From Candidatus Pelearchaeum maunauluense (GTDB taxonomy: Archaea > Thermoproteota > Nitrososphaeria_A > Caldarchaeales > Caldarchaeaceae): a stretch of 21,310 nt of DNA. The position numbers were made by a program, and so were the translations under genes. Location of the stretch: assembly GCA_030059675.1 (NCBI GenBank), contig JANVYQ010000017.1, forward strand, positions 1-21,310, written 5' to 3'. A model generated the notes under the pieces. The model searched no databases. It was not told the DNA's origin and saw only the letters and a list, made by a program, of their open reading frames with translations. Shown piece after piece: positions 5,760 to 21,037 of the stretch (position 1 is its first letter; every line of letters begins with the position of its first letter).

Positions 5760-6695
5760 ATGACGCAATGCTACAAATGCGGCAGAGAGGCTCCGCGCTA
5801 TCATGTAACGTATATGCGGCGGAGTATGTGTGGTGATTGTTTTGTGAGTTTCTATGAGAGGAAGGTTAAGAATGCGTATATCAAGTATGGGATGTATAAG
5901 GTTGGCCGTCGTGTTGGTGTGGCTGTATCGGGTGGTAAGGATAGCCTGGCTCTGCTGAGCGTGCTTAAGCGCGTCTTTCCACACCTAAGCCTTACGGCGA
6001 TATACCTAAACCTCGGTATAGGCGGCTACTCTGATGAGAGCGAGCGTGTCTCAAGAAAGCTGTGCGACGAGCTTGGTGTTGATTTAATCGTCTACCGTCT
6101 AGACAGCTCCGAGGGGTTTGTTGTTCCAGACTTCAGGAAGACGGCGTTCAGGAAACGTATGTGCGGCGTCTGCGGGACTGTAAAGCGCTACCTCCTCAAT
6201 AAGGTGGCGTATGAGAATGGGCTTGAGGTGATAGCGACAGGCCACAACTTGGATGATACCGTTGAGGTTTTGTTTGAGCTGTACCTGCGTGGGAATCTTG
6301 AGGAAGCGGCGCGGCTGAAGCCCGTGCTACCCAGCAACCACCCCCGGATGGCGAGTAGGATAAAGCCGCTGATAGAGATGACCGACGAGGAAGACCTCTA
6401 CTACGTTGATGCGCTCGGTATTGAGTACGCCTCCTCGTGGTGTCCCCTAGTTAAGGGCTCGCGCATGATGAACCGTAAGATGCTTATCAAGCAGATTGAG
6501 GAGAAGATCCCTGGGTATCGGCATCTTCTCTTCAAGTCTCATGTCAAGAAGATTCTGCCCAAGCTGGAGCAGTTATACAGCCAGCCCGCGCTGAATGACT
6601 GTGAGTTATGTGGGATGCCGACGACAGCGCGCATATGCAGCTATTGTAAGGTTGTTAAGAGGGTTAAGAAGGCTGAAGACGTAGAGGCTCACTGA
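5760..6695 (+). CDS. ttuA: TtuA/NcsA (TtcA/Ctu1 family) PP-loop tRNA 2-thiolation protein
   Basis: N-terminal Zn finger CYKC..CGDC, PP-loop SGGKDS, CGVCG, GHNLDD, SWCP (third Fe-S Cys) and C-terminal CELC..CSYC. Probable start ATG 5760 rather than TTG 5685. Confidence 0.88.
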   Translation: MTQCYKCGREAPRYHVTYMRRSMCGDCFVSFYERKVKNAYIKYGMYKVGRRVGVAVSGGKDSLALLSVLKRVFPHLSLTAIYLNLGIGGYSDESERVSRKLCDELGVDLIVYRLDSSEGFVVPDFRKTAFRKRMCGVCGTVKRYLLNKVAYENGLEVIATGHNLDDTVEVLFELYLRGNLEEAARLKPVLPSNHPRMASRIKPLIEMTDEEDLYYVDALGIEYASSWCPLVKGSRMMNRKMLIKQIEEKIPGYRHLLFKSHVKKILPKLEQLYSQPALNDCELCGMPTTARICSYCKVVKRVKKAEDVEAH

Positions 6696-8971
6696 GAGCC
6701 ATTCTCACTACGTTTTGAGCGTATGAGCCAGTAGAGCTTCTCAGGCGTTATTGGTATTGATAACGGCCTCACGCCCACAGCGTCTTTTATGGCGTTGGCT
6801 ATCGCTGGGGCTATTGGTATTATGCCTATCTCGCCAATCCCCTTGGCGCCGAAGGGGCCTGTTTCCTCCCCGTCCTCAACTGGTATAACCTCAATCTCAG
6901 GAGCGTCCTTTATGCTTGGGATTAGATATGTGGAGAAGTTCTGCGTCTTGAGTATCCCGTTCTCTATCTTGGCCTCCTCCATCAAGGCGTAGCCAATACC
7001 CTGGACGGCGGCTCCCTCTATCTGGCCCTGGAATGTCTGGGGGTTAATCACCTTACCAGCGTCAGGGATTACGACGAGCTTACGAACCTGCACAAATCCT
7101 GTGAGAGTATTAACCTCCACTAAGGCGAGGGCGGCGGCGAACATGTAGAAGAGGTGGGGTATCTCAAGGGTTCCAGGTATAGGCTCCACACGCGGCACCT
7201 CATACTCGCCAACCACATTGAGCGGTATGTTGTTGTTCTCCATGTAGCGCGCTATCCCTGCGTAGCTTATTCTAGTCTTCCCATCCCTTGATATGGCGTA
7301 GCCATCTAGGAAATCAAACACTTCAGGCGGCTCTCCAGACAGCCCTGCTGCCACGTGGCGCATCTTGTCAAGCATCTTACGCGCAGCGTCGGCTAGAGCA
7401 TTACCAGCGAGGAACAACTGCCGCGAAGCGGAGGTTACGCTTGTGTCTGGTGTTTCTAGGGTGTCGGCGAAGACTAGCTGTATATCATCCACGCCGCACT
7501 TGAGCATGTCCGCCGCCACCTGAGCTAATGCTGTGAGAACGCCCTGCCCAATCTCGGTTGAGCTTACCCTAACCCTAAACTTACCCTCGCGCGTTAGCTC
7601 AACCCCGACCTGGCCCTTGTCTGGGAGAGCGCCTAATGTGTAGCCCTTAACAGCCGAGGCGACGCCTATGCCGCGCCTAATCCACGGCCTAGCCGTCTCG
7701 GACTTATAGCGCTCACGCTCCCTCCAAAGCTCGTGATTAGCAGCTATCTCCAGAGCCTTCGCAATCCCAACACTTCCAATCAGCTTGTTGTTGAAAACAC
7801 CTACATCACCGCGTCGTAGGGCATTCCTAAGCCTAAGCTCTATCGGGTCCATGTTGAGTTGCTCAGCTATCGCGTCAAGCTGGCTCTCTATAGCGAATAA
7901 AACCTGGGGAGCGCCGAAACCCCTGAAAGCAGATGCGACATAGTTATTTGTATAGACCAGCGTGGCGCTTATGTCTATGTTCGGTATCTTGTATGGGCCG
8001 TTGCAGTTCTCTATCGCCACGTCCAAGACAGCTGGGCCAAGCCCCTCGTAGGCTCCTGTGTCGTAGATTATCTCGGTCTTGTTGGCTAGGAGCACGCCAT
8101 CACGCCGCGCTGCTGTCTTCATCCTGATTATACCCGCGTGGCGCTTGGTTCCTGCTATTGTTGATTCCTCGCGCGTCCATACCAGTCTAGCTGGCCTGCG
8201 CGTCTTGAGCGTGATTAGGGCTAGGTGTATCTGTACCGATATGTCATCCTTCCCCCCAAACGCTCCCCCAACATGCGGAATAACCACGCGGACAGAGTCT
8301 TCTGGGATGTTGAGCGTGGAGCATATCTCGTGCCTATCACGGTAAGGAGACTGCCCACCAGCAACTATCGTCAGTCTTCCATTCTCGTCAAAGTATGAGA
8401 TGCCAGCCTCCGTCTCTAGGTATGCGTGTATCTGAGTGCCTACCGTGTATGTGTTCTCAACTATTATGTCAGCCTCTCTGAATGCTTGCTCAACGTTTCC
8501 AAACGATATGTGTGTCTGTCTCGCTATGTTGCCGCGTTCATGAACCTTTGGACTTTCGGGCTTCATGGCCTCAAGTGGGTCCAACACAGCAGGCAGAGGC
8601 TCGTACTCGACCTCTATCATGCCTAGAGCCTCTTCAGCAGCCTCAGGCGTCTCGGCAGCCACTACAGCTATGGGGTCGCCTATGTAGCGCGTCTTATCAT
8701 CGCAGAGAACAGGCCTATCCTTGTTAAACGGCCCATACCTATTATTGGGTATGTCCTCATGTGTGAATATCGCGACGACGCCTGGATGGCTCCTGGCCTT
8801 TGATACGTCTATGCGTTTTATCCTCGCGTGCGGATATTTGCTTCTCAGCACCTTACCCCACAGCAGCCCTTCTGGGAAGAGGTCTGAAGCATACTTAGCC
8901 TGTCCTATGGCCTTCTCCAGGGCGTCGCGCCTGGGGATTGGCTTCCCAACCCAACGCTGAGCCTGAACCAA
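6689..8971 (-). CDS. Xanthine dehydrogenase family molybdopterin-binding large subunit
   Basis: LRSKYPHARI, HAYLETE, VGGAFGGK, AFRGFGAPQ, EIGQG, GQIEGAAVQGIG, GAKGIGE motifs; 760 aa. Confidence 0.95.
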   Translation of the reverse strand: MVQAQRWVGKPIPRRDALEKAIGQAKYASDLFPEGLLWGKVLRSKYPHARIKRIDVSKARSHPGVVAIFTHEDIPNNRYGPFNKDRPVLCDDKTRYIGDPIAVVAAETPEAAEEALGMIEVEYEPLPAVLDPLEAMKPESPKVHERGNIARQTHISFGNVEQAFREADIIVENTYTVGTQIHAYLETEAGISYFDENGRLTIVAGGQSPYRDRHEICSTLNIPEDSVRVVIPHVGGAFGGKDDISVQIHLALITLKTRRPARLVWTREESTIAGTKRHAGIIRMKTAARRDGVLLANKTEIIYDTGAYEGLGPAVLDVAIENCNGPYKIPNIDISATLVYTNNYVASAFRGFGAPQVLFAIESQLDAIAEQLNMDPIELRLRNALRRGDVGVFNNKLIGSVGIAKALEIAANHELWRERERYKSETARPWIRRGIGVASAVKGYTLGALPDKGQVGVELTREGKFRVRVSSTEIGQGVLTALAQVAADMLKCGVDDIQLVFADTLETPDTSVTSASRQLFLAGNALADAARKMLDKMRHVAAGLSGEPPEVFDFLDGYAISRDGKTRISYAGIARYMENNNIPLNVVGEYEVPRVEPIPGTLEIPHLFYMFAAALALVEVNTLTGFVQVRKLVVIPDAGKVINPQTFQGQIEGAAVQGIGYALMEEAKIENGILKTQNFSTYLIPSIKDAPEIEVIPVEDGEETGPFGAKGIGEIGIIPIAPAIANAIKDAVGVRPLSIPITPEKLYWLIRSKRSENGSQ

Positions 8972-8981
8972 GCCCTTTTTC

Positions 8982-9857
8982 TCACCCGCTTCTATGGGTC
9001 AGCTCCCAAAGCCCCATATACACTAGATTCACACTCATCTCGCGCCTATATTCTGCGGAGCCGCGCACATCGTCTATCGGAGATATAGACTCTAGAACAG
9101 CCTTTGCCGCGTTCCACATGCTATCCTCGTCAAGCTTTTTGCTAATTATGAGCTGCTCACACCTCCGCGCACGCACTACCGTTGGCGCCACAGCACCCAA
9201 CGCTACACGCGCGTCGCTGAACAACCCGCTACGGCTGTCTCTTCTAACCCATATCGCCGCGTTGACCACAGCTATGGCGTCACCCAGCCTAAGCCCATGC
9301 TTCAGGAAAATCCCATCCTCATCATCACTCATCGCCCTCAACCTTACCTCACAGACCAGCTCATCCTCGGCGAGGTCAAGCTTCTTGTAGCCGCGATAGA
9401 AGCTCTCTATAGGAACTTCGCGGGAGCCGCGGGAGCTTGCCACCCTAACCACAGCGCCCAGCGCGTAGAGAGGCGGCAGCGAATCAGCTGCTGGCGAGGC
9501 ATTCACAATATTACCCCCTATGGAGGCTTTATTCATTATCTGTATCGAGCCTATCGTGCTTGCCGCGTCTGCGAGAATCTTGGCGTAGTGTCTTATGGTT
9601 TCTGAGCTTGCTATCTCGCTAAACGATGTGAGCGCGCCTATCCTTATCATATCATTATCGTCCAGCTTTATGTATCGTAGCTCGTCAAGACCGTAGATAT
9701 TGAGCAAGTCCCTGCGCGGGATTATTCCATCCTTCATCTGTATTATCAAGTCCGTTCCTCCAGCGACCACCTTAATCCTCCCTTTCCTGCTGCTGAGAAT
9801 CTCAAGAGCCTCATCTAGGCTTGATGGTGTGATAACATCTATGTCGTAGAGTAGCAT
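8982..9857 (-). CDS. Xanthine dehydrogenase family FAD-binding medium subunit
   Basis: AGGTDL, IGALT, ASIGGNIVNASPAAD, PIDDVRGSAEYR. Confidence 0.95.
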   Translation of the reverse strand: MLLYDIDVITPSSLDEALEILSSRKGRIKVVAGGTDLIIQMKDGIIPRRDLLNIYGLDELRYIKLDDNDMIRIGALTSFSEIASSETIRHYAKILADAASTIGSIQIMNKASIGGNIVNASPAADSLPPLYALGAVVRVASSRGSREVPIESFYRGYKKLDLAEDELVCEVRLRAMSDDEDGIFLKHGLRLGDAIAVVNAAIWVRRDSRSGLFSDARVALGAVAPTVVRARRCEQLIISKKLDEDSMWNAAKAVLESISPIDDVRGSAEYRREMSVNLVYMGLWELTHRSG

Positions 9858-9858
9858 T

Positions 9859-10335
9859 TTATCTGCGCACCCTGAGGACGGCTTCTAGAATCTTAGCATA
9901 TCCCGTGCATCTACATAGGTTGCCGCGTAGGGCTTCTTTAACCTCCTCAACCGAGGGGTTGGGGTTGCTCATGAGGAGAGCCTTCGTCGCCATTATCAAG
10001 CCAGGTGTGCAATAGCCGCACTGCACAGCACCAGACTCGGCATATGCTGACTGAACCTCATCTGGAGACGAGTCGCGGAGAAGTCCCTCAACAGTAGTTA
10101 CGCTACGCCCCTCGACCTGCGCCATGAGCGTAAGACAGGAATGAACAGCCCTACCATCCAGCAAGACCGTACAAGCACCACAATCACCATCACCACACCC
10201 ATCCTTAGTCCCCGTAAGATGTAGAACATTACGAAGAGTCTCAAGCAGGGTATATGCTGGCGGAACCTCAACCTCCACAGGCTTACCATTCAGAACAAAA
10301 CTAAAACGCTTAACTACCGCGCTACCACGCCGCAC
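9859..10335 (-). CDS. Xanthine dehydrogenase family 2x[2Fe-2S] small subunit
   Basis: GCGDGDCGAC..SC and QCGYCTPG..GNLCRCTGY. Confidence 0.95.
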   Translation of the reverse strand: MRRGSAVVKRFSFVLNGKPVEVEVPPAYTLLETLRNVLHLTGTKDGCGDGDCGACTVLLDGRAVHSCLTLMAQVEGRSVTTVEGLLRDSSPDEVQSAYAESGAVQCGYCTPGLIMATKALLMSNPNPSVEEVKEALRGNLCRCTGYAKILEAVLRVRR

Positions 10336-10395: not shown

Positions 10396-10641
10396 TTAAC
10401 CCAGTTCTAAGATAGAAAACGCTTTTACAGATACGTTTCTCGCCTTCTCTCTAAGTTCCCTATCCTCTGATACGAGAAAAGCGTCAAGCTTTTTAGTCAG
10501 ATGAATGTATGAAGCATCATAGAAAGTTATCTCAAGTTCTATGGCTAGTTTTAGTATTGATGAAAGATCTTCTGCAGATTTAATTTCATAGACCTTCATA
10601 TGGCTCATAATGTAGCTATACAGTTTGTCTTGTAAATACTA
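10396..10641 (-). pseudogene. PIN-domain (VapC-like) toxin C-terminal remnant
   Basis: ITFYDASYIHL...LVSEDREL is the PIN C-terminal motif; the N-terminal acidic motif is missing and an in-frame TAG lies at 10639-10641; no antitoxin visible. Confidence 0.7.
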
Positions 10642-10708
10642 TATTTCGGATATCATTCTCCAACCTAAAAGTAGCCTTATGAGGAGCTGTTTACGCGGTA
10701 ATGGAGGC

Positions 10709-11734
10709 ATGACTGTAGCGGATATTCATGGGAAGGACTTGATTTCAACCCAGGAGTGGAATGTTGAGGAGATAAGCCTGGCCCTTGACCTGGCGCGTAG
10801 CATTAAGCAGTGGCGTTATGCTGGGAATGTTCCAGAGCTCTTTAAGAATAAGACCTTCTTCATGCTGTTCTACAATACTTCGACGAGGACTAGGGCGAGT
10901 TTTGAGGCTGCCGCGACCATGTTGGGCGGCCATGCGCAGTTTATAGACTTCGCGACCACGCGCGGGGCTGAGGGCGAGGCGGTGAAGGACATAGCGAAGA
11001 TGTATGAGCGCTTCGGCCATGCTCTGGGGATTAGGATACTTGAGTCGGCGGTTGATTATGTATATGGGCGTGGTAATGCAACGATACGCGAATACGCCCA
11101 ACACGCCAAGATACCCGTAATCAACATGGCAGACGACATGTATCACCCAACCCAAGCTATGGCTGATATATTCACAATCATGGAGAAGTTTGGGGGCAAT
11201 ATAGCTGGGAAGAAGTATGTTATCATGTGGGCTTATAGTGATAAGATAAGGAGCTGGGGGAGTGTTCAGGATGAGATGCTGATAGCTACGCGGTATGGGA
11301 TGGATGTTGTCCTCGCGTATCCGCCTGGCTTTGATATAGATGAGAAGCTGGTTGAGCAGGCTCGCGAGAATGCGCGGGACTCTGGAGGTGGGCTGGAGAT
11401 AACCCACGACCTAAAGGCGGCGATGCAGGGAGCGCATGTAGTGTTCCCGCGAAGCTGGGCAAGCCATGAATGCGTCTTAACAGGCCTAAATAGATTCGGA
11501 AGAGAACGCGAGCTGGAGCTGCATAACAAGTATAGGGGCTGGAAGCTCACGCGCGAGCTGGTAGACCTGATGGATAAGCGTGGAATAATCACGCATGTTC
11601 TTCCAGTCTTCCGCGGCCAGGAGGCGGATGATGATGTGATGGACAGTAAGAGGAGTGTAATCTATGACCAGGCGGAGAACCTGCTATACGTCAGGGCCGC
11701 TATACTGGCGCTGCTTGCTGGGGATGTTGATTAG
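10709..11734 (+). CDS. YgeW-like carbamoyltransferase (ATCase/OTCase superfamily), paralog 1
   Basis: STRTR, HPTQ, HVLP, QAEN; has WAYS and FPRSWA and lacks the OTC DxxxSMG loop. ATG 10709 follows GGAGG. Confidence 0.85.
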
Positions 11735-12696
11735 GGCAGTATATGCGTCCCAGCCCTGCCCTCAAGCGCCTCCCTCACCTGGGATAGCTCGGCTATAATA
11801 GCTTCCCTACCGCCTGCTTCAACGAAGCGTATCGCTGCCAAGACCTTCGGCCCCATGCTGCCAGCGGCGAAGTGGCCTTCATCATAGTATCTCCTGGCCT
11901 CACCTACCCTGAGCTGGGTTAGCTTCTTCTGCTGTGGTGTTCCGTAGTTTATGTATGCTGCATCTACATCGGTTAGTATTATGAACCTGCTCGCGCCTAT
12001 GAGGCTCGCGAGACGCTGGCCAGCTAGGTCTTTGTCTATCACCGCCTCAACCCCACGTGCCTGTCCATCTTCCTCAACTATCGGAATCCCACCGCCGCCG
12101 CTTGCTACCACGATAAACCCAGCGTCAACCAACGTCCTTATCGCGTGCCGCTCAGCTATTATCTTGGGGTCTGGCGATGGCACCACACGCCTCCAACCTC
12201 CGCGAGCCTTATCCTCCTTAAACACATACTCAGGATGCGCCTCCCTAATCTTCTCCATCTCCTCCCTACTGTAGAACGGGCCTATCGGCTTCGTCGGATT
12301 GGCGAAGGCAGGGTCGTCTCTATCAACTATCACGCGCGTAACCACTGTTATCACGTACTTGTCTATTCCACGTCTCTTCAGCTCGTTTCTGAGGGCCTGC
12401 TGTATCATGTAGCCTATGAAGCCCTGGGTCTCCGCGCCGCATACATCCATCGGGAAGGGCGGTATGCCGTACATCTTGCTTCCAGCGTCGTGTCGTAGTA
12501 GCGTAGCTCCAACCTGCGGGCCGTTGCCATGCGTTATGACCAGGTTGTAGCCCCTCTCTACTAGGTCTGCTAGATACCGCGAGGTCGTCTCCACGTTCCT
12601 ATACTGCTCGGAGAAGGAGCCCTTCTCCCCACGTCGCAGTAAAGCGTTACCGCCAAGAGCGATTACGATAAGCTCACCATCATTACGTTGATTCAT
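11731..12696 (-). CDS. arcC: Carbamate kinase
   Basis: [52 protein letters not shown]; probable start ATG 12696. Confidence 0.95.
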
Positions 12697-12741
12697 GCAG
12701 GAGAAAGCACAACTGCTCAATAAAAAATTATGCCTCTCTTC

Positions 12742-13995
12742 TTAGATGTTCAGCACTCTCCTAAGCTCCTCTATACGCGGCTCTATGAGCGGTGGCTCGC
12801 CATATAGCTGGGTGGTTTTTTCAGCCTCCTTGAGGCCTGAGCCCGTTACTAATACGACAACCGTTTCGGTCTTGTCTATTTTTCCCGCGTCCAGCAGTTT
12901 TTTAAGCCCTGCTAGGCCAGCGGCTCCTGATGGCTCTGCGAATATCCCCTCCTTTGACGCTAGGAGCTTCATGGCCTCGGCTATTTCCTCGTCGGATACC
13001 GCCACCCCCTCGCCGCCTGAGCTTCGCGTTGCCTGCATGGCAGCATCGCCATCCCAGGGAAATGGGTCAAGCAGGCCAGATGCTATAGACCTAGGCCACT
13101 TCTCGGGCTCTATCTCCTCAAACCTCTTCCCAGAGTTAATCGCCCTCACGAGGGGCTGGTTTCCAGTGGGCTGGACTGGGAAGAGCCTGGGAGCCTCCTC
13201 CACGATTCCCAGAGCGTTTAGGTCGCGTATCCCGCGCCAAACACCCGTGAGGAGACAGCCAGAGCCTGTTGGGACAAGTATCGCATCTGGAGAGCACCAG
13301 CCAAGCTGCTCAACAACCTCATATGAGATTGTCTTAGGACCCTCAACTTGGTAGGGGTTGAAGGGGCCGAAGCTGGGTGATGGGTACCAGCCCAGCTCCT
13401 CAACGGTTCTGAGCATCATCTGCACCGTGGGGTCTCTGCCTTCTTCTATCTGCCTCACCCGCACTACATGCGCTCCTAGCAGGAGGAGCTGCGCTGCTTT
13501 GCCGCGCGCTACATCTTCTGGGACGAATGCGTAGCATCTTAGGCCTAGCGCCGCCGAGTATGCTGCTAGTGATGAGGCTGCATTGCCGCTTGAGGCTATG
13601 ACGACGTTGCTCTTACCCATCTCGGCAGCCTTAGCAGCGCCTACTGCCATGGCCCTATCCTTGAACGATGCTGTTGGGTTGCGTGTCTCGTCTTTGAGAT
13701 AGAGGTTCTTCATTCCGAGAAGCCCGGCCAGCCTCTTGGAGCGTATGAGCGGCGTGTTTCCCTCATTTAGCTGCGCGGCGAACCTCTTGTCTGCTGGCAT
13801 AAGCTCCGCGTAGCGCCACACGCCTATCTGCGGTCTCCCCGCTATCTTATCTCTGTCCAGCTTCTCCATTATCTTAACATAGTCATAGTTTATGTCCAGC
13901 CTACCGAAGTCGCGCTCCTCACACATCAGGGGATTCTGACGCGGCTCGTATCTCCTACCACACCTAGAGCATACAAGACTCACCACATACGACAA
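12742..13995 (-). CDS. Threonine synthase-like PLP enzyme (fold type II)
   Basis: N-terminal CSRC, EGNTPL, NPTASFKDR, ASSGNAA, PTGSG, FAEPSGAAG, LVTGSGLK; true substrate uncertain. Confidence 0.85.
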   Translation of the reverse strand: MSYVVSLVCSRCGRRYEPRQNPLMCEERDFGRLDINYDYVKIMEKLDRDKIAGRPQIGVWRYAELMPADKRFAAQLNEGNTPLIRSKRLAGLLGMKNLYLKDETRNPTASFKDRAMAVGAAKAAEMGKSNVVIASSGNAASSLAAYSAALGLRCYAFVPEDVARGKAAQLLLLGAHVVRVRQIEEGRDPTVQMMLRTVEELGWYPSPSFGPFNPYQVEGPKTISYEVVEQLGWCSPDAILVPTGSGCLLTGVWRGIRDLNALGIVEEAPRLFPVQPTGNQPLVRAINSGKRFEEIEPEKWPRSIASGLLDPFPWDGDAAMQATRSSGGEGVAVSDEEIAEAMKLLASKEGIFAEPSGAAGLAGLKKLLDAGKIDKTETVVVLVTGSGLKEAEKTTQLYGEPPLIEPRIEELRRVLNI

Positions 13996-13998
13996 GGC

Positions 13999-15027
13999 TT
14001 ACTCTATCACCTCAAGCCTGTTCTGATATCTCTGGAGCTGGCTCAAGCTATACTCGTCAAGCGGGTGCTCGCGCTCAGGTACTACAAGCTCCTTCTTAAC
14101 CCCGAAGACCTCTGTGGAGAAATACCTATTCCCAGAGTCGTTCACCATAGTTACTATCCTCCTAAGCTCTGGATGCCTCTTCGCGAGCTTTATCGCTGCA
14201 ACCACGTTGCAGCCTGATGATATTCCGCAGAAGATTCCCTCCTCCATTATGAGGCGGCGCGTCATTCTTATCGCCTCCTCCGAGGAGACGGTTATCACCC
14301 CATCCAGTATGCTTAGGTCCAAGTTACGCGGGATGAAGCCGTCGCCTATACCCTCAATCTTATGAGAGCCCCACCTGCCATGCGCTATTATGGGAGCCTC
14401 TGAAGGCTCAACAGCGTAAAGCCTCACTCCACTCCTCTTCTCTCTAAGAAACTTGCCAACACCGGTAAGCGTGCCGCCAGTACCCTGCGAAGCTAGGAAA
14501 CAATCCACATCACCCCCAGTCTGCTCCCAAATCTCTGGTCCAGTGGTCTTGTAGTGGGCTGCGGGGTTGTCTGGGTTGCTGAACTGGTTGGGGAACCAAT
14601 AGCGTCTCGGATGCTCGTTGATTAGGCTCTCTATCTTCTTCAGGCAGAGGTCTACGTCGCTCTCTCCGCCTGGTGTGAGCATTAGTTCTCCGCCGAAAGC
14701 TCTTATCAACTGCTTTCGCTCCTCGCTCATCCCCTCTGGCATAACCACAGTTACCCTATACCCTAGGACGCGGCCGACGAATGAGCAGGCTATCCCAGCA
14801 TTCCCCGTTGAGGCTTCTAGTATCTCCATCCCAGGCTCTAGGTCGCCCCGCTCAATAGCCCTGGTTATCATCTCCCTGTATATCCTGTCCTTCAGGCTTC
14901 CAGTGGGGTTGAAGAACTCCAGCTTGACTAGAATCTCAGCCCCGATACCCTCAGACTCAGGTATGCGGCGGAGCTTCATCAAGGGAGTATTCCCTATCGT
15001 GTCAAGAATAGACTCCGCAACCTTCAT
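13999..15027 (-). CDS. Cysteine synthase family PLP enzyme with C-terminal extension
   Basis: IGNTPL, NPTGSLKDR, EASTGNAG, NQFSNPDN, GTGGT, HKIEGIG, GISSG, DSGNRY; 3-nt gap to the thrC-like gene. Confidence 0.88.
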   Translation of the reverse strand: MKVAESILDTIGNTPLMKLRRIPESEGIGAEILVKLEFFNPTGSLKDRIYREMITRAIERGDLEPGMEILEASTGNAGIACSFVGRVLGYRVTVVMPEGMSEERKQLIRAFGGELMLTPGGESDVDLCLKKIESLINEHPRRYWFPNQFSNPDNPAAHYKTTGPEIWEQTGGDVDCFLASQGTGGTLTGVGKFLREKRSGVRLYAVEPSEAPIIAHGRWGSHKIEGIGDGFIPRNLDLSILDGVITVSSEEAIRMTRRLIMEEGIFCGISSGCNVVAAIKLAKRHPELRRIVTMVNDSGNRYFSTEVFGVKKELVVPEREHPLDEYSLSQLQRYQNRLEVIE

Positions 15028-15064
15028 AAACCTACCTTAACCGTTGCTTATTTTTAGAGTTTCG

Positions 15065-15322
15065 TCAATCTAGTAATTTCTTTAGAAGCTACTCCTCCTT
15101 AGGAACACCTACGAACGCGAGCTTACCATCTATCACTACTGCGGGAGTCGTCATAATCATATATCGTAAAGCCGCCTCTGGGTTCGCTGCCAAATCAACA
15201 ACCCTAATCTCAATATCTCTAACTTTACCCCTCATATTCTCAATAAGCCGCTGGATTGTTTTTATGGTCTGCTCGAAGCGCTGGCAGCCTGACGAGGTTA
15301 GAATCTCAACACGCTTAGCCAT
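15065..15322 (-). pseudogene. Small thioredoxin/glutaredoxin-like protein, degraded
   Basis: TPAVVIDGKLAFVGVP thioredoxin motif; CxxC reads CQRF; TAG 15089-15091 interrupts KEE*LLKKLLD*. Confidence 0.7.
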
Positions 15323-15334
15323 GTTTCACACCTA

Positions 15335-16290
15335 CTAATGCGCGTGTGGTAGGTTTTCACCCATATAAGCCATGAGCAGCGAAAAGGCGAATAACGTCAA
15401 GACCAGTATTAGCCTGTTAGCTTCCACCTTCCTCGCTGTTTGTCGTATGAGGTAGGGCGCTGAGAGTAAGGCGGCGAATAGCATCCAAGGCCCATAGATT
15501 GCGGCGGAGCTATGAACATTCAAATCTCCCAGTATTGTTTCTATAGTCTCTGACTCTGCAACCATCTGGCCTAGTGTTGCCGCTATTAGCGCGTTCCAGA
15601 GGCCGTGTATTATGCTCAACTCCCACCATGCGTGGCCGAATAGTGGCTTGGGAAGTGTGAGGGCTGCGAATATGATGAGCCCCCAGCCAGTTAGCCGTGC
15701 TACCGCCTCACGCTTAGCCGCTATTCCGTCTAGTCAAATCCAAGCCCAGAATGCCTAGTGCAGATATTGCCAGTAGTGGAATAGCCCTACCGAGCCCATG
15801 CAACGCGGCCTGTATTCCTCCAAACCCGATGCTGGCCGTTGCCGCTATGTATGTGAGGAGCAGGAAAAAGAGCGGGTTTGGGCATCCTATTCCAGCATTA
15901 CCCACTAAGACGCCCATGAGATATGATTTCAGATATTCGCCGCCTCTCAGCAGAATACCGCCGCCAACACCCAAGCTTGGGAGCGTGATTCTCAACACCC
16001 CCAACTCCGAGAGCCCGAATAGATACGCCATAACTCCAGCCAAGAGCCACATAGCTAGCGTGAGCTGGTCTAGGTAGAGTATCTTGCCCAGAGCTGCTGT
16101 GGCGAGGCCGTAGAGGCTTATTGTAGTGATGAGCCCGGCACCAAATAACAGGGATATTGTAATTCCCTTCATGGCCCTATGCCCCATGCTTAGAGGAACT
16201 ATGACAAACAACGCGGGAAGCGTGCAGGCCAGGAATATCATGGATACCCCAGCCACATAAGCCAACAAAAACACAACAAAAGTGGAGGCT
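15335..16290 (-). pseudogene. CcdA/DsbD-like transmembrane thiol-redox protein, frameshifted near 15728 and probably 5'-truncated
   Basis: AYVAGVSMIFLACTLP and GIGCPNP cysteine pair; after the shift GIAAKREAVARLTGWGLIIFAAL...HAWWELSIIHGLW runs in frame into ORF 15335-15619. Confidence 0.75.
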
Positions 16291-16337
16291 CAAGCAAAAA
16301 AGAATGTGTAATACTTGGGAGAAAGCTCTAGAACCCC

Positions 16338-17390
16338 TCACCGCATGACCATGCTCATAACAGCCTTCTGGACATGGAGCCTGTTCTCAGCCTGCTCAAA
16401 GTAGAGAGAGTAGCGGCTGCTGTCTATAACCTCGTCAACGACCTCCTGCCCCCTGTCAGCTGGGCCACAGTGCATGTACTTCCCCTTGTTGGTGAGATCC
16501 ATGAGCTCAGGCGTGCATATCCAGTCCTTGAACCTATCCTGGTAAGCCCTTGCGCCATCCTTATCCACTGAGCTATTATATGGTGGGAAGAACTTCTTCG
16601 GAGACCATGCCTTTGGATAAACGAAGTCAGCGCCCTCAAAGGCTTCCTTCATGTCATTAACTATCGTGAAGCTCCCGCCGTACCTGTCTGCGTTCTCCTT
16701 GCAGGCTTTGATTACGTGCTCCTCCAGCTCGAAGCCTGGTGGATGCGCCAGCACCACATCCATCCCGAACTGGGTGCCTATCAAGACGCAGCTCTGCGGC
16801 ACGGCTAGGGGCTTGAGCCCGCCTGAATATGCGTAGGAGACGACGAACTTCTTGCCGCGCGGCTTCGGCGCTACATCCGTTATCGCCATAATGTCTGCGA
16901 GAGCCTGGAACGGGTGGTAGATATCATCCTCCATGTTGAGGACTGGTATGCTGCTCCACTTGGCGAACTCCTGGATTACGCGATGCCCTCTCCCAATATG
17001 CCACTTGGCTGCATCACCGTATATCCTTATGGCTATCGCATCACCGTACCTGCTCAGCACGCGGGATACATCAGCTATGGACTCGGTCTGGTAGGGTATC
17101 ATGTCTTCTGGGAGGGTTGGTGTATAGACATCCTGCGGGCTTAGGAAGTGTGCGTGTCCGCCGAGCTGGTAGATTCCCGCCTCAAACGAGTTTCGCGTCC
17201 TGAGTGAGCGGTTGTAGAAGAGCATGAAGAGCGTTCTACCGCTCAGGTATGGCGTAGGCGTTCTAGACCTAAACTTCTCGCGCAGGTCTCTAGCAGCCTC
17301 AAGAATCGCCGCAACCTCTTCTTGGGAAAAGTCATTCGTGTTGAGAAAGTGCCTACCACTCATCTTACCTACATACGCGGGTGTGCTCAT
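16338..17390 (-). CDS. YgeW-like carbamoyltransferase, paralog 2
   Basis: SLRTR, HPFQ, YAYSGGLKPLAVPQS, YPKAWS, YMHCGPAD, QAENRLH; closely recalls YgeW motifs (WAYS..KPLSVPQG, YPKSW, HCLPAD); no SMG loop. Confidence 0.88.
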   Translation of the reverse strand: MSTPAYVGKMSGRHFLNTNDFSQEEVAAILEAARDLREKFRSRTPTPYLSGRTLFMLFYNRSLRTRNSFEAGIYQLGGHAHFLSPQDVYTPTLPEDMIPYQTESIADVSRVLSRYGDAIAIRIYGDAAKWHIGRGHRVIQEFAKWSSIPVLNMEDDIYHPFQALADIMAITDVAPKPRGKKFVVSYAYSGGLKPLAVPQSCVLIGTQFGMDVVLAHPPGFELEEHVIKACKENADRYGGSFTIVNDMKEAFEGADFVYPKAWSPKKFFPPYNSSVDKDGARAYQDRFKDWICTPELMDLTNKGKYMHCGPADRGQEVVDEVIDSSRYSLYFEQAENRLHVQKAVMSMVMR

Positions 17391-17412
17391 ACAGCTGAGA
17401 CATACGGGTGGC

Positions 17413-17424
17413 GTTAATATAAGA
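17413..17424 (-). promoter_or_regulatory. Putative TATA box for carbamoyltransferase paralog 2
   Basis: Minus-strand cttatattaa about 25-30 nt upstream of ATG 17390, consistent with a leaderless archaeal transcript. Confidence 0.45.
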
Positions 17425-17506
17425 ATGTGCTACCTAACGTTCAGGCCCTCGCATTTCTTTGGGGCTTAAATAATATTATGGAACTTTTGTGGAGAAGATG
17501 TAGGGG

Positions 17507-17903
17507 ATGGCTGTAGATGCTGCAACGCGGGTTAGGCTATGCTTGGAGGGTGTCGAGAGGCTTCTTGAAGAGAGTCTGTAAAGGAGTTTGAAGCAGGATT
17601 GCGTGGAGGGAGTTCGGTTAAGATGCGGGACGCCGCGGAGAAGGCATAGAGCGCCGTAGTACAAGCAACAGACGCACTCCTGCTAAGCACGTTAGGCAAG
17701 AAAACCTCAAACCACTGGGAGAGAAGACGTCTCCTAAGAGAGCTTGAACGGAGCAGGCTAGAGATTGAGAAGCTGGGCTTGAGAGATAGATACTCGGCAA
17801 GGGAGAAGAACCTGTATGAAATGGTCTTTTATAACGGGATAATAGATGTTTGGAGAAGGCTAGGCGGTATCTTGATGATATACGTATGCGGGTTAGAGCT
17901 TAG
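17507..17903 (+). pseudogene. PaREP1/HEPN family protein, multiply disrupted
   Basis: Reassembled by hand: MAVDAATRVRLCLEGVERLLE/ESVKEFEAG...MRDAAEKA*SAVVQATDALL...NHWERRRLL...LRDRYSAREKNLYEMVFYNG.../LEKARRYLDDIR. TAG 17647-17649 replaces the W of AAEKAW; frameshifts near 17570 and 17850. Confidence 0.75.
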
Positions 17904-19228
17904 GTTAGGAGTATGTTGTAGGCTGCTGGTATTATGTAGCCCACGGCCAGGAGGAGGCCTGTGGTTGTGGCTAGTTTTATGTTGGTTGCGAGGCCTGGTA
18001 TCATGTAGTAGGGGTTTCCGTAGGTTTCGCTGATTTGCTTTATAGCCTTTCTGGCTGTTGGTATTGTGAGGAGCGCGAGGAGCGTTGTGAAGGGCGCGTA
18101 GCCCGCCGCGAAGGTGAGCACTATGATTACATAGACCAGCGCTATGAGAGCCTTGTAGAGCTTCATCACAGTTTGGTCGTCAAGCCTCACTACCAGCGTT
18201 CTCTTCCCAGCTAGGGCGTCTGCCTTCTTGTCTGGTATCTCGTTGGCATACAGTATGAGCGCTATGAGGATACCCACGGGGAGCGAGGCTAGGAGAGGCG
18301 CTATGTGGAAGCTCTGGGTCTGGACGTAGTAGCTTCCCAAGACTATTACTGGGCCGAAGCCTACTCCAACGGCTATCTCTCCCACGCCGCGGTATGCGAG
18401 CTTGAAGGGAGGGGCTGTGTAGAAGAAGCTTAGGACGAACCCTATGAGCATTAGGGAGAGTATCGGGACGAGCCCGCGTGTTATGGCTAGGTATAGCCCT
18501 ATTCCAAGACCTAGGGCGTAGAACGAGGAGAACATGGCGACCGCGGCTGACGGTGTTATGAGGCCATACTGGAGAGCTCTTGAGCCTCCGCTGAACGGTG
18601 TAGGTGTGGTATTCACGTTATCGGCGCCGAGCTTCGTGTCGTAGTAGTCGTTAGCCATGTTGAGGCCTAGGTGTATGGCTGCAAGCCCGACTAGCGTAAG
18701 TATGAAGAGCAGGGGGTCGAATATTCCGTGATACGCCGCCACCGCAGCGCCCAAGAGCGTGGGTACGACTGTAGCTATTAGGAAAGGCAGGCGCGTAACC
18801 CTGAAGAAGAGGGAGAATAGTGAGAGGGCTGGCTTGAGCTTCCTGCCCAGCTCACGCTCAAGCAACTGCATGTAACGACGGCCGCGCGGAACCGAGATTT
18901 CACAATACTGGAAGAAATGAACCCTATTCTCATCCCAGCTATAACGCCTAGACGGAGTGAAACGTATCTCGTCTTGCTTCTCCTCTACGCCACCCCATAG
19001 TACGATGTAGCGTCTATCCATGTAGCCGCCTGTGGGTAGCGGTGTTATGTGGTTGAATAGGAGACTAACCTTATCTGAGCTTCTCTTCTTCAGCCAGTCA
19101 CGTTTCTCTAATATGACAGTCTCATCCTCTATGCGGTAGCCTGACGGGTAGCTGAACGGATAGCCCTCGTCATCCACGTAGGTTACTATCGCCTCGCCAT
19201 ACTCCCTAACATCCTCCAACATGGTCAT
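17900..19228 (-). CDS. MenA-like UbiA-family prenyltransferase fused to an N-terminal ~130-aa PNPOx-like soluble domain
   Basis: TRLPFL, NDYYDTKLGAD..FSGGSR, YTAPPFKLAYRGVGE, NEIPDKKADALAGKRTL; the N-terminus AIVTYVDDEGYPFSYP...VSLLF...YIVLWG mirrors the upstream split-barrel protein. Confidence 0.88.
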   Translation of the reverse strand: MTMLEDVREYGEAIVTYVDDEGYPFSYPSGYRIEDETVILEKRDWLKKRSSDKVSLLFNHITPLPTGGYMDRRYIVLWGGVEEKQDEIRFTPSRRYSWDENRVHFFQYCEISVPRGRRYMQLLERELGRKLKPALSLFSLFFRVTRLPFLIATVVPTLLGAAVAAYHGIFDPLLFILTLVGLAAIHLGLNMANDYYDTKLGADNVNTTPTPFSGGSRALQYGLITPSAAVAMFSSFYALGLGIGLYLAITRGLVPILSLMLIGFVLSFFYTAPPFKLAYRGVGEIAVGVGFGPVIVLGSYYVQTQSFHIAPLLASLPVGILIALILYANEIPDKKADALAGKRTLVVRLDDQTVMKLYKALIALVYVIIVLTFAAGYAPFTTLLALLTIPTARKAIKQISETYGNPYYMIPGLATNIKLATTTGLLLAVGYIIPAAYNILLT

Positions 19229-19229
19229 C

Positions 19230-19706
19230 TCACCTCACGTATATCTGGGGCTCCCTACTCATGTCCCCATCATTCCAGACATACAGCTTACGCGGCGTTA
19301 GCTCTATTATGCTACGCTCCCAGAAGAGGGGAAGCGCTATACGCTGCTTAACATAAGCATCTATGTAAGGCTCCTTCTTACGCCAAAGCGGTAGTAGCTT
19401 CTCCCACCCATGATGAATATCCTCCTCAAGAACGCGAGCATCCCCCTGAACCAACACTACATGAAACTCATCCGACTTGATGAAGCGCCTATTGCTGAAC
19501 AGTGCAGAAACACGCTGATTCCTCTTAATATACTCCAGCTTCTTACTGAAAAGAACGCTTGATGTGAAGTAGATATTCCCGCTACCGCGCTCATAGAGCG
19601 GGAGTAATGGATGGGTTACTGGTCTGCCGTTCTCGTCTATGCATGTAAAGGCGCAGACCAGCGCGTTCTCAAGTATCTTCTCAACATGGTTGGGTATGAA
19701 GGTCAT
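19230..19706 (-). CDS. Pyridoxamine 5'-phosphate oxidase-like (split beta-barrel flavin/F420/heme-binding) protein
   Basis: FTCIDENGRPVTHP, KKLEYIKRNQRVSALF, VLVQGDARV, IELTPRK; 1-nt gap to the prenyltransferase. Confidence 0.85.
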   Translation of the reverse strand: MTFIPNHVEKILENALVCAFTCIDENGRPVTHPLLPLYERGSGNIYFTSSVLFSKKLEYIKRNQRVSALFSNRRFIKSDEFHVVLVQGDARVLEEDIHHGWEKLLPLWRKKEPYIDAYVKQRIALPLFWERSIIELTPRKLYVWNDGDMSREPQIYVR

Positions 19707-19735: not shown

Positions 19736-19743
19736 TTTATAAA
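19736..19743 (-). promoter_or_regulatory. TATA box for the PNPOx-prenyltransferase unit
   Basis: TTTATAAA 30 nt upstream of ATG 19706. Confidence 0.55.
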
Positions 19744-19747
19744 TGTT

Positions 19748-20914
19748 TTACCACTTGCTAGTGGTAAAAGGTTCACGGGTAGCTAAAAGCCCCAAACTAG
19801 GAAGAACCGAGGCAACAGCCAGCAGAAGCCATGCTACAACAAAGCCAGAGCCATCAGCCACGATAGAGAAGAGCGTAGGCGCCAGCGAAGCCCCCAACAA
19901 TTGTGTGGAGTTCACTATACTCACAACTAGTGAGGCGTATCGTTGCTCTATGTCGCGGTACTGTATAGCGGTTGAGTAGGTTAGTGTGTATGACACACCA
20001 GCGCTGAACCCCATGATTATTATGGCGAGTAAGACTGGTGGGAAGCTGCGTATTGCGAGGATTGCTATTGCGCCTGAGATTGAGAGGTTAAACAGGAGCA
20101 GTAGTTTAATCCTTGTTCTCAGCTTGTCGGAGATTCTACCACCTACGGGAGAGCCGAAGACACTAAACACCTCCAAAAGGGATGCGGATATTCCAGCAAC
20201 CGCCAGCGACACACCAACCTCGAGCGTCATATACACTATGATGAACTGAACAACCACGAACCACGCTCCCCCAATACCTGTTAGAGCTACTGCCAATAGC
20301 CAGACATCGCGATGTCTGAGCACATGCCTTAGACCTTGACCAAATCCTCTACTCCCACTCTCGCGCGGTAGCCCTGATGTTACTATTGTATTCTGTAGAG
20401 CCATAGCCAAGCCTAGTGCGCCTGCCAGGACTAGGGAGTAGCGCCAGCCTATACTGTTAATGAAGACCGTCCAGAGGCCGAATCCCAGTATGCCGCCCAC
20501 GCTGAAGGCGCTGTTGTATATTCCAATAGCGAAGCCCCTCTCGTTCTCTGAGAAGAGTGGAGAGAAGACCCCGATTGCTGGGCTGAAGAAGAACGCCATA
20601 CCAGCGCCCATCAGGAACCGCAGTATGACTAGAGCCTCGTAGGTTGGTGCAAGCCCTGAGAGAGCTGCGAAGAGGGATGATGAAGCAAGACCAATCATAG
20701 CTGTGTTTCTAGAGCCTATGCGCGCAGCCACGAGGCCGGCGGGTATCTGGAAAACACCCACACCCAGTAGGAAAGCAGTACCAACAGCGCCAAGCTCAGC
20801 CACCTCCAGTCGAAACTCAGAAGCTATAAGCGGAAGAGCTGGCGAGAGGTTAAACCAATTAACTGCATAGACTATCCTAGACGCGGCCAGCGATAGAAGC
20901 ACAACCCAACGCAT
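19748..20914 (-). CDS. MFS transporter
   Basis: About 12 hydrophobic segments; motif-A-like GLVAARIGSR and GGRISDKLRTR; LRFLMGAG; ERGFAIG. Probable start ATG 20914 (track start 20962). Confidence 0.9.
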   Translation of the reverse strand: MRWVVLLSLAASRIVYAVNWFNLSPALPLIASEFRLEVAELGAVGTAFLLGVGVFQIPAGLVAARIGSRNTAMIGLASSSLFAALSGLAPTYEALVILRFLMGAGMAFFFSPAIGVFSPLFSENERGFAIGIYNSAFSVGGILGFGLWTVFINSIGWRYSLVLAGALGLAMALQNTIVTSGLPRESGSRGFGQGLRHVLRHRDVWLLAVALTGIGGAWFVVVQFIIVYMTLEVGVSLAVAGISASLLEVFSVFGSPVGGRISDKLRTRIKLLLLFNLSISGAIAILAIRSFPPVLLAIIIMGFSAGVSYTLTYSTAIQYRDIEQRYASLVVSIVNSTQLLGASLAPTLFSIVADGSGFVVAWLLLAVASVLPSLGLLATREPFTTSKW

Positions 20915-21037
20915 ATTATAGTGAGGCTGTTCCAAACTATCTGGCTGCTCACCGAAAAGCACCTAAAGAATATTCCAACAACCAGCTAGCGCTTTAACAT
21001 TTTTAGTCCCTACCAATAAATATCAAGAACAATAATC

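Follow-up and report, generated by a model that had tools for sequence, protein, structure and literature searches.

A split-barrel::MenA-like prenyltransferase fusion and its co-inherited split-barrel partner: a possible reductase-coupled prenylation complex in Caldarchaeales

Respiratory quinones are central to energy metabolism, and to our knowledge two routes to menaquinone are known. The described enzymes closest to the one reported here are the prenyltransferases MenA (TIGR00751) and UBIAD1, the animal enzyme that converts menadione to menaquinone-4 (MK-4). UBIAD1 prenylates a salvaged, reduced head group (reduced menadione) rather than 1,4-dihydroxy-2-naphthoate (DHNA), and the two Asp-rich motifs of the UbiA superfamily bind Mg2+ and the prenyl diphosphate. 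Here we analyse a 21,310-nt stretch of DNA (the window) from the hot-spring archaeon Candidatus Pelearchaeum maunauluense (GenBank assembly GCA_030059675.1, contig JANVYQ010000017.1, positions 1 to 21,310), in which a MenA/UBIAD1-type transferase is fused to an N-terminal split β-barrel and preceded by the gene of a second, soluble split-barrel protein. We propose, giving the idea slightly less than an even chance, that the two genes form an operon for a transferase complex in which a flavin-binding split-barrel heterodimer reduces a naphthoquinone-type head group for prenylation.

The fusion shares with MenA a UbiA fold, nine predicted transmembrane (TM) helices and both Asp-rich motifs; unlike MenA, it has a 135-residue split barrel, an obligate partner gene and an extra P-F-S-G-G-S-R loop, and it occurs in genomes without the DHNA pathway. 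UBIAD1 (8djk) is its closest solved structure by both profile and fold comparison, and differs in being eukaryotic and in having neither a split barrel, nor a partner, nor the 7-residue loop. As regards the barrels, the PNPOx, general stress protein 26 (GSP26) and NimA-like proteins (PF01243, PF12900, PF16242) resemble the partner by sequence and the N-terminal domain by fold, but the known members are soluble homodimers, whereas here one barrel is tethered to the membrane and the other is a diverged, separate paralogue. Split-barrel FDOR-A enzymes such as Ddn reduce menaquinone at the membrane (text of PMC8498797) and are, in function, the closest precedent for naphthoquinone reduction by a split barrel. 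They depend on F420H2, for which the window's genome shows no FO synthase, are neither fused to nor paired with a prenyltransferase, and show a weak sequence relation to the pair. Our literature search found no paper describing a split-barrel::MenA-like fusion, and none is mentioned, supplements aside, in PMC3914697, PMC4122944, PMC8498797, PMC9012536 or bioRxiv 10.1101/2025.09.17.676790. Public records usually annotate the fusion plainly as MenA, a label that hides the problem.

The features of the two genes are listed below.
19736..19743, minus strand: TATA-box-like TTTATAAA, about 33 nt upstream of the partner ATG, read from the sequence
19230..19706, minus strand: partner gene, encoding a 158-aa soluble PNPOx-family split-barrel protein (open reading frame, PNPOx_N match)
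17900..19228, minus strand: fusion gene, 442 aa, N-terminal split barrel plus MenA/UBIAD1-type prenyltransferase (open reading frame, Pfam, NCBIfam)
18824..19228, minus strand: N-terminal split-barrel domain (N-domain), fusion residues 1-135 (AlphaFold2 fold, structural matches)
19007..19027, minus strand: invariant N-domain loop G68-Y69-x-x-R72-R73-Y74, a predicted contact with the partner (42-44 aligned fusions)
17900..18823, minus strand: UbiA-fold membrane prenyltransferase domain, residues 136-442, with nine predicted TM helices
18638..18661, minus strand: first Asp-rich motif, N190-x-x-N193-D194-x-x-D197, at the end of TM2 (all four residues invariant in 42 fusions)
18578..18604, minus strand: subfamily loop P209-T-P-F-S-G-G-S-R217, between TM2 and TM3 (G214, G215, S216 and R217 invariant)
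18203..18244, minus strand: second Asp-rich motif, N329-E-x-P-D333-x-x-x-D337-x-x-x-G-K342, at the end of TM6

A preliminary description, made from the sequence by a model, had pictured a 442-residue prenyltransferase with some 130 extra N-terminal residues, encoded 1 nt from its neighbour behind a single TATA box, and both observations hold. About 135-145 residues precede the usual start of the family as defined by Pfam and TIGR00751, a single base separates the partner TGA (19232-19230) from the fusion ATG at 19228, and the TTTATAAA box stands directly after the stop codon of an upstream major facilitator superfamily (MFS) gene. From this layout the two genes look like an archaeal operon with a short leader. 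A Shine-Dalgarno-like GAGGTGA overlaps the partner stop codon and ends 1 nt before the fusion ATG; we do not claim it as the ribosome-binding site of the fusion. The closest public record is that of a Candidatus Pelearchaeum metagenome-assembled genome (MAG) of the Caldarchaeales group, at 94% protein identity. The genome to which the window belongs, assembled in 21 contigs totalling 1.79 Mb, has a completeness of 94.4%.

In sequence, the N-domain matched no Pfam family at E<=10, none of 13 relatives matched one at E<=0.01, and the PDB sequences gave, for the domain alone, one meaningless match (E 0.29). Its AlphaFold2 model, in contrast, is of high predicted local distance difference (pLDDT 92.1) and recovered 43 PDB matches at E<=1e-3 with Foldseek (top 2i02, E 6.8e-5), those listed being nearly all split-barrel or PNPOx-like proteins that bind flavin mononucleotide (FMN), flavin adenine dinucleotide (FAD), F420 or heme. 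An independent aligner, VIA-align, placed 57 chains at Z>=8, led by 2hhz (Z 11.7, root-mean-square deviation 2.6 over 97 residues). At the level of the predicted model this fold evidence settles the question and confirms residues 1-135 as a split β-barrel, in keeping with the preliminary description; the N-domain thus belongs with the PNPOx-like barrels by fold alone, and the partner by sequence. The same description had also pointed to motif pairs shared by the two proteins. These are real and are aligned by BLASTP, in which N-domain residues 16-60 pair with 21-72 of the partner (E 0.017) and 88-100 with 134-146 (E 0.078), matches that are marginal alone; a profile-profile comparison built on a 44-row alignment gave a probability of 89.7% (E 1.8e-6) over 92 columns. 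That the two are remote homologues is well supported. The residues invariant across the aligned fusions are G68, Y69, R72, R73, Y74, W98 and E100. PhdC (9nk0), a split-barrel maturase of prenylated FMN, also resembles the N-domain (Z 9.2, deviation 2.6 over 92 residues), a likeness that we take as a lead only to the idea that split barrels can act on prenylated cofactors.

The partner of the window itself just exceeds the PNPOx_N cut-off (PF01243; 28.4 bits against 28.1), a marginal score; at the level of the family, all 37 aligned relatives match PNPOx_N at E<=0.001, with a best value of 7.3e-11. Weak PNPOx and GSP26 matches were obtained from the PDB sequences with the partner alone or as a profile (E 0.016-0.1), and the ESM Atlas returned PNPOx-like clusters only. 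The family conserves a Ser/Thr/Lys-rich stretch, Thr-Ser-Ser...Ser-x-Lys, that may be a phosphate-binding motif. The heterodimer foreseen in the preliminary description is supported by complex prediction: N-domain and partner scored 0.90 (runs of 0.91, 0.90 and 0.86), whereas the best of the three controls reached 0.01, though solved homodimers may drive the high score. In calibration the mark applied is reached by 58 of 80 solved complexes and by two of 110 mismatched pairs. At least 72% of contacts are common to the runs, and the pLDDT of the partner is at least 83. The predicted interface takes in residues 66-69, 72 and 74 of the N-domain, and so the invariant G68, Y69, R72 and Y74, and on the partner side includes the conserved S50, L52, F53, S54, K111-P113, A124, P126 and F128. 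The model thus supports, without showing it, that the N-domain binds the partner.

The membrane part of the fusion matches the Pfam family UbiA (PF01040) at 117.3 bits against a cut-off of 34.2 (residues 154-390) and just passes TIGR00751 (menA; 107.6 bits against 102.15, residues 147-429); the other nine MenA or phylloquinone models listed stay below their cut-offs, the best being NF004751 (160 against 264). The full-length AlphaFold2 model is confident (pLDDT 92.0, pTM 0.85), and UBIAD1 8djk leads the solved structures both by profile (E 1.8e-24) and by fold (E 1.1e-9, TM-score 0.79, 26% identity). In the second Asp-rich motif, N329, E330, P332, D333, D337 and K342 are each conserved in at least 90% of 42 aligned fusions. 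Opposite the P-F-S-G-G-S-R loop the profile alignment leaves a 7-residue gap in UBIAD1. A loop of the form P-[FY]-[ST]-G-G-S-R occurs in 72 of 79 related loci, the remaining seven having close variants, and it marks a whole MenA-like subfamily, fused or unfused. The N-domain precedes TM1, whereas the Asp motifs close TM2 and TM6; because the chain crosses the membrane an even number of times in between, the barrel and the active site are predicted to share one side of the membrane. The models thus lend good support to a single membrane complex, a transferase carrying a tethered split-barrel heterodimer on its active-site side.

The preliminary description had staked its proposal on the N-domain being a split barrel, on the fusion recurring beyond this assembly and on the partner travelling with it; checks of all three points left the proposal standing. 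The best 120 relatives listed are of similar length (421-464 aa; 93-100% coverage, 46-94% identity) and their named sources include Caldarchaeum, Nitrososphaerota, Aigarchaeota and Actinomycetota, while a search of 1.8 billion proteins with the N-domain returned 85 representative clusters. Within the window's class, sampled by 76 genomes of one order, the N-domain is found in 33, always inside a frame of 433-511 aa except for one cut at a contig end, and those 33 alone have the partner as well, encoded immediately upstream in the same orientation, the two matched stretches lying 2-36 nt apart. By family, the pair occurs in 17/17 genomes of f1, 15/19 of f2, 0/4 of f3 and 0/35 of f4. Among 113 genomes from a class of Actinomycetota, 30 gave a strong N-domain match, and it is again these 30 that have the partner directly upstream, one being truncated where its contig ends; ten of these carriers are unpublished genomes (G107, G108, G123, G131, G132, G133, G143, G146, G147, G152), and without them the count is 20/20. 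At the thresholds used, neither class (76 and 113 genomes) includes a genome with one part and not the other, so that all 33 and all 30 carriers have the partner directly upstream. In the 20 neighbourhoods that were compared, partner and fusion are the sole conserved genes. The 120 listed relatives and the carriers in two lineages rule out an assembly artefact or a one-off fusion.

A quick tree of the membrane domains (94 rows; L024 gave no match and was left out) gathers all 18 fusions of the window type, bacterial and archaeal, into one clade (Shimodaira-Hasegawa-like approximate likelihood ratio test, SH-aLRT, 99) together with two unfused rows. One of these, L004, is a gene cut at a contig start. 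The other, L003 (2300-3250), a 316-aa gene from a Nitrososphaerales MAG, is truly unfused although it falls inside the fused clade; its upstream neighbour is divergently oriented and its incomplete 1.1-Mb genome shows no partner, a combination that fits, and may reflect, a joint loss of barrel and partner.

Related architectures were found elsewhere. Genes of the SAR406 type and of related marine bacteria carry a different N-terminal extension of about 110 residues, which the N-domain profile does not match, and their transferases form a separate clade in the tree. Fourteen Asgard loci share a fixed cluster around an unfused MenA-like gene of the window's subfamily, with the same loop; the cluster (for example L017, 4794-10132) comprises a polyprenyl synthase (14/14), the MenA-like gene (14/14), a 162-aa PNPOx protein (14/14), a 420-aa protein with a DUF7530 membrane domain joined to a PNPOx domain (14/14) and an HdrD-like CCG/4Fe-4S protein (13/14, the remaining locus ending at a contig end). 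The Asgard transferase falls in another clade than the window fusions. The two systems thus have in common the MenA-like subfamily and its loop and two split-barrel proteins, one of them membrane-anchored, with a polyprenyl synthase alongside in the Asgard case; they differ in that the Asgard anchored barrel is fused to the DUF7530 membrane domain, not to the transferase, and in the added Fe-S CCG protein. The combination of an anchored and a free barrel beside this transferase subfamily has thus evolved in more than one version, in one case accompanied by an Fe-S electron-transfer protein. In one locus with the pair, L002, a polyprenyl synthase adjoins it. We note separately that the Asgard cluster gives DUF7530 a context, as the domain that anchors a split barrel to the membrane next to a prenyltransferase of quinone type.

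The preliminary description had reported no men or mqn genes near the pair. The window indeed holds none, and in the genome as a whole neither known head-group route was detected: MqnA/D and MqnC gave no matches, and the best scores for MenB (179.9 bits against a cut-off of 342.7) and MenD (61 against 244) fall well short. Across the 76 genomes of the window's class MenB exceeds its cut-off in none, and PF02621 (MqnA/D) in one, with a partial match. In Table 1 of Zhi et al. 2014 (PMC3914697), futalosine enzymes are recorded for part of a set of three Thaumarchaeota proteomes. Most relatives in the class that lack the pair have a MenA-like gene that is unfused and some 300-350 aa long. Among the 113 Actinomycetota genomes MenB exceeds its cut-off in 63 and the pair occurs in 30; none has both, 20 have neither, and PF02621 is found in 0/113. 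Leaving out 26 unpublished genomes gives 47 with MenB, 20 with the pair and again no overlap, so that in this class the module is confined to genomes without MenB.

The genome of the window contains four UbiA-family genes, namely two heme O synthases (C5:66641-67387 and C10:46614-47369; 281.9 and 286.1 bits against a cut-off of 210.3), one gene resembling digeranylgeranylglyceryl phosphate (DGGGP) synthase, and the fusion, which on these assignments is its sole quinone-type prenyltransferase. Heme had been offered in the preliminary description as one possible prenyl acceptor. This is unlikely, as heme O synthase models (TIGR01473 and related) are absent from the 17 NCBIfam matches of the fusion and the genome has its two heme O synthases elsewhere; we rejected heme farnesylation for a transferase of MenA/UBIAD1 type in a genome with two true heme O synthases. 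Subunit I of heme-copper oxidases is encoded at four loci (G000 contigs C5, C10, C14 and C2, with the heme O genes), one of which, on C10, was matched in two pieces. An aerobic archaeon with four such loci thus has one quinone-type prenyltransferase and neither known head-group route, and the pair points to an unstudied step in the making of respiratory quinones. It offers a two-protein handle on the quinone supply of widespread uncultured groups, whether this proceeds by salvage with coupled reduction or by a new biosynthetic route.

Under the reading that we favour, the fusion gene would encode a MenA/UBIAD1-type polyprenyltransferase whose N-terminal barrel lies on the side of the two Asp-rich catalytic motifs, and the partner, a PNPOx-family paralogue, would pair with the N-domain into a membrane-tethered heterodimer at the mouth of the active site. 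The module most likely serves as a flavin-dependent reductase of, or feeder for, the prenyl acceptor. In the pocket between its barrels it would bind a flavin (FMN or FAD rather than F420) and would reduce a naphthoquinone-type head group to the hydroquinone, the form that MenA/UBIAD1-type enzymes can prenylate, which would then be handed to the transferase. The head group would derive from neither the Men nor the futalosine route, being either imported or made in some other way, and the complex would be the sole candidate for making the respiratory quinone of this organism. The MFS gene upstream of the partner is a candidate importer and fits import; it lies outside the conserved core.

Several points weigh against this proposal. 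The fold does not name the cofactor, because the structural neighbours bind FMN, FAD, F420, heme or none. No flavin-family sequence model matches the N-domain, whose ability to bind a cofactor may have been lost. The profile-profile match between N-domain and partner falls to 42.6% (E 2.5e-4) with a 13-row alignment. The complex score cannot separate a heterodimer from two homodimers, and may echo the split-barrel homodimers that are abundant among solved structures. Four genomes with SAR406-type fusions were searched and have no partner of the window's partner family; a partner is thus not universally needed. The absence of Men and Mqn enzymes rests on MAGs, that of the window being 94.4% complete, and no clear MenG/UbiE was found in this genome (best 85.9 bits against 158.35). 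A second MenA-like gene, not fused, is present in five carriers of the window's class. Finally, the Fisher p of 2e-14 for the mutual exclusion of pair and MenB overstates independence, the genomes being relatives; the pattern is still clean.

Other explanations draw on much of the same evidence. The barrel heterodimer might instead be a biosynthetic enzyme (an oxidase, dehydratase or aromatising enzyme, akin to PhzG, NohD or PhdC) that makes the last soluble intermediate of an undescribed third head-group route and channels its product into the transferase. The pair and transferase would then be the terminal module of that route, the barrels making or activating a head group other than DHNA, and the route would replace Men and futalosine in Caldarchaeales, in one class of Actinomycetota and probably in other lineages. 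We regard this as rather unlikely. It would account for carriers without either known route in two lineages and for the strict separation of pair and MenB in the 113 Actinomycetota genomes; the carriers are, moreover, free-living aerobes with terminal oxidases, for which obligate salvage seems a fragile strategy, and biosynthetic barrels do occur among the fold neighbours (PhzG 4hmw, Z 8.9; PhdC 9nk0, Z 9.2; KtzT 9jn4, Z 8.6; NohD 9oqs). A single small barrel pair, however, cannot build a naphthoquinone ring alone, and the 20 loci hold no further conserved neighbour able to supply earlier steps. It is also possible, and in our view unlikely, that the module is not catalytic and binds, carries or regulates (heme, quinone or polyprenyl diphosphate), tuning or gating the transferase in the manner of the glutamyl-tRNA reductase (GluTR)-binding protein or of HutZ/HupZ-type heme binders. 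These three are indeed among the fold matches (4n7r, Z 10.4; 3tgv, Z 9.2; 7kpz, Z 9.9), the N-domain resembles no flavin family in sequence, and its seven invariant residues (G68, Y69, R72, R73, Y74, W98, E100) form no obvious flavin motif. Against this stand the PNPOx_N matches of 37/37 partner relatives, with the putative phosphate-binding Ser/Thr/Lys-rich stretch retained, and the Asgard version of the module, whose adjacent Fe-S CCG protein suggests electron transfer.

The reductase chemistry of our preferred reading could also operate one step later. In phylloquinone synthesis the NDC1/NdbB step provides an analogue for reduction after prenylation: the module would convert the prenylated demethyl-quinone into its quinol, either ahead of a later methylation or to hold it in the reduced state. 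Such a role would involve no other chemistry than the preferred reading and would share its evidence for a redox module. We think this quite improbable, given that MenG/UbiE stays below its cut-off in the window's genome (85.9 against 158.35), that no methyltransferase is conserved beside the pair in the 20 neighbourhoods, and that a lipid product is more easily reached within the membrane than by a soluble barrel. With F420, one of the cofactors entertained in the preliminary description, the module would be a Ddn-like quinone reductase of the FDOR type that uses F420H2 and is attached to MenA. F420-binding proteins are found among the fold matches (5jv4, 4qvb, 5jab), the genome has a CofD-family gene, and the partner matches two F420-dependent PPOX-class models weakly. 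Those matches lie far below the cut-offs (TIGR03618, 23.8 bits against 79.05; TIGR03667, 22.9 against 125.3), and the CofD Pfam family also matches control bacteria not known to make F420. Because no FO synthase was found in the genome (CofH best 20.7 bits against 374.1; the related MqnC model, no matches), F420 synthesis is unlikely, and we hold this version to be very improbable. Scarcely credible is mere adjacency, with the partner an independent general-stress flavoprotein and the N-domain acting by itself or in a homodimer. Homodimers are compatible with the complex prediction, and SAR406-type fusions occur without a partner of this family, but all 63 carriers, from two distant lineages, have the partner directly upstream on the same strand, no genome has a single part, the gap in the window is 1 nt, and the conserved surfaces coincide with the predicted interface.

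The genes around the pair include the following.
19748..20962, minus strand: MFS transporter gene directly upstream of the partner (MFS_1, 162.6 bits)
16338..17390, minus strand: ornithine carbamoyltransferase (OTCase)-like gene
13999..15027: PLP-dependent (PALP) enzyme
12742..13995: PLP-dependent (PALP) enzyme
11731..12720: amino-acid kinase
10625..11734, plus strand: OTCase-like paralogue
9859..10335, minus strand: molybdenum hydroxylase, 2Fe-2S subunit
8982..9857, minus strand: molybdenum hydroxylase, FAD subunit
6689..8971, minus strand: molybdenum hydroxylase, molybdenum cofactor (MoCo) large subunit

The order MFS-partner-fusion is found in 8/8 loci of family f1 and in 0/12 other loci. 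Downstream of the fusion the order is largely preserved within f1: each of its eight loci has the OTCase-like gene next in line, the window, L001 and L090 having insertions. Elsewhere this order is not kept. A wider operon with the MFS, OTCase-like and pyridoxal phosphate (PLP)-enzyme genes was rejected, the order being kept in f1 alone (8/8 against 0/12). Between the fusion and the OTCase-like gene lies a 509-nt spacer (17391-17899) without a convincing open reading frame; it contains no repeats, Rfam and tRNA scans of the window returned nothing, and it sits inside an unbroken alignment, at about 89.5% identity, with the related MAG L001. The region 10625-17390 looks like an unrelated amino-acid or carbamoyl metabolism cluster. 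It encloses a DsbD-like membrane protein (DsbD_TM 21.9 bits, below cut-off) followed by frames of 94 and 77 aa (15089-16274, minus strand), which may form a thiol-disulfide module. Farther along, the three adjacent genes at 6689-10335 (minus strand) encode a molybdenum hydroxylase of the CO-dehydrogenase/xanthine-dehydrogenase type.

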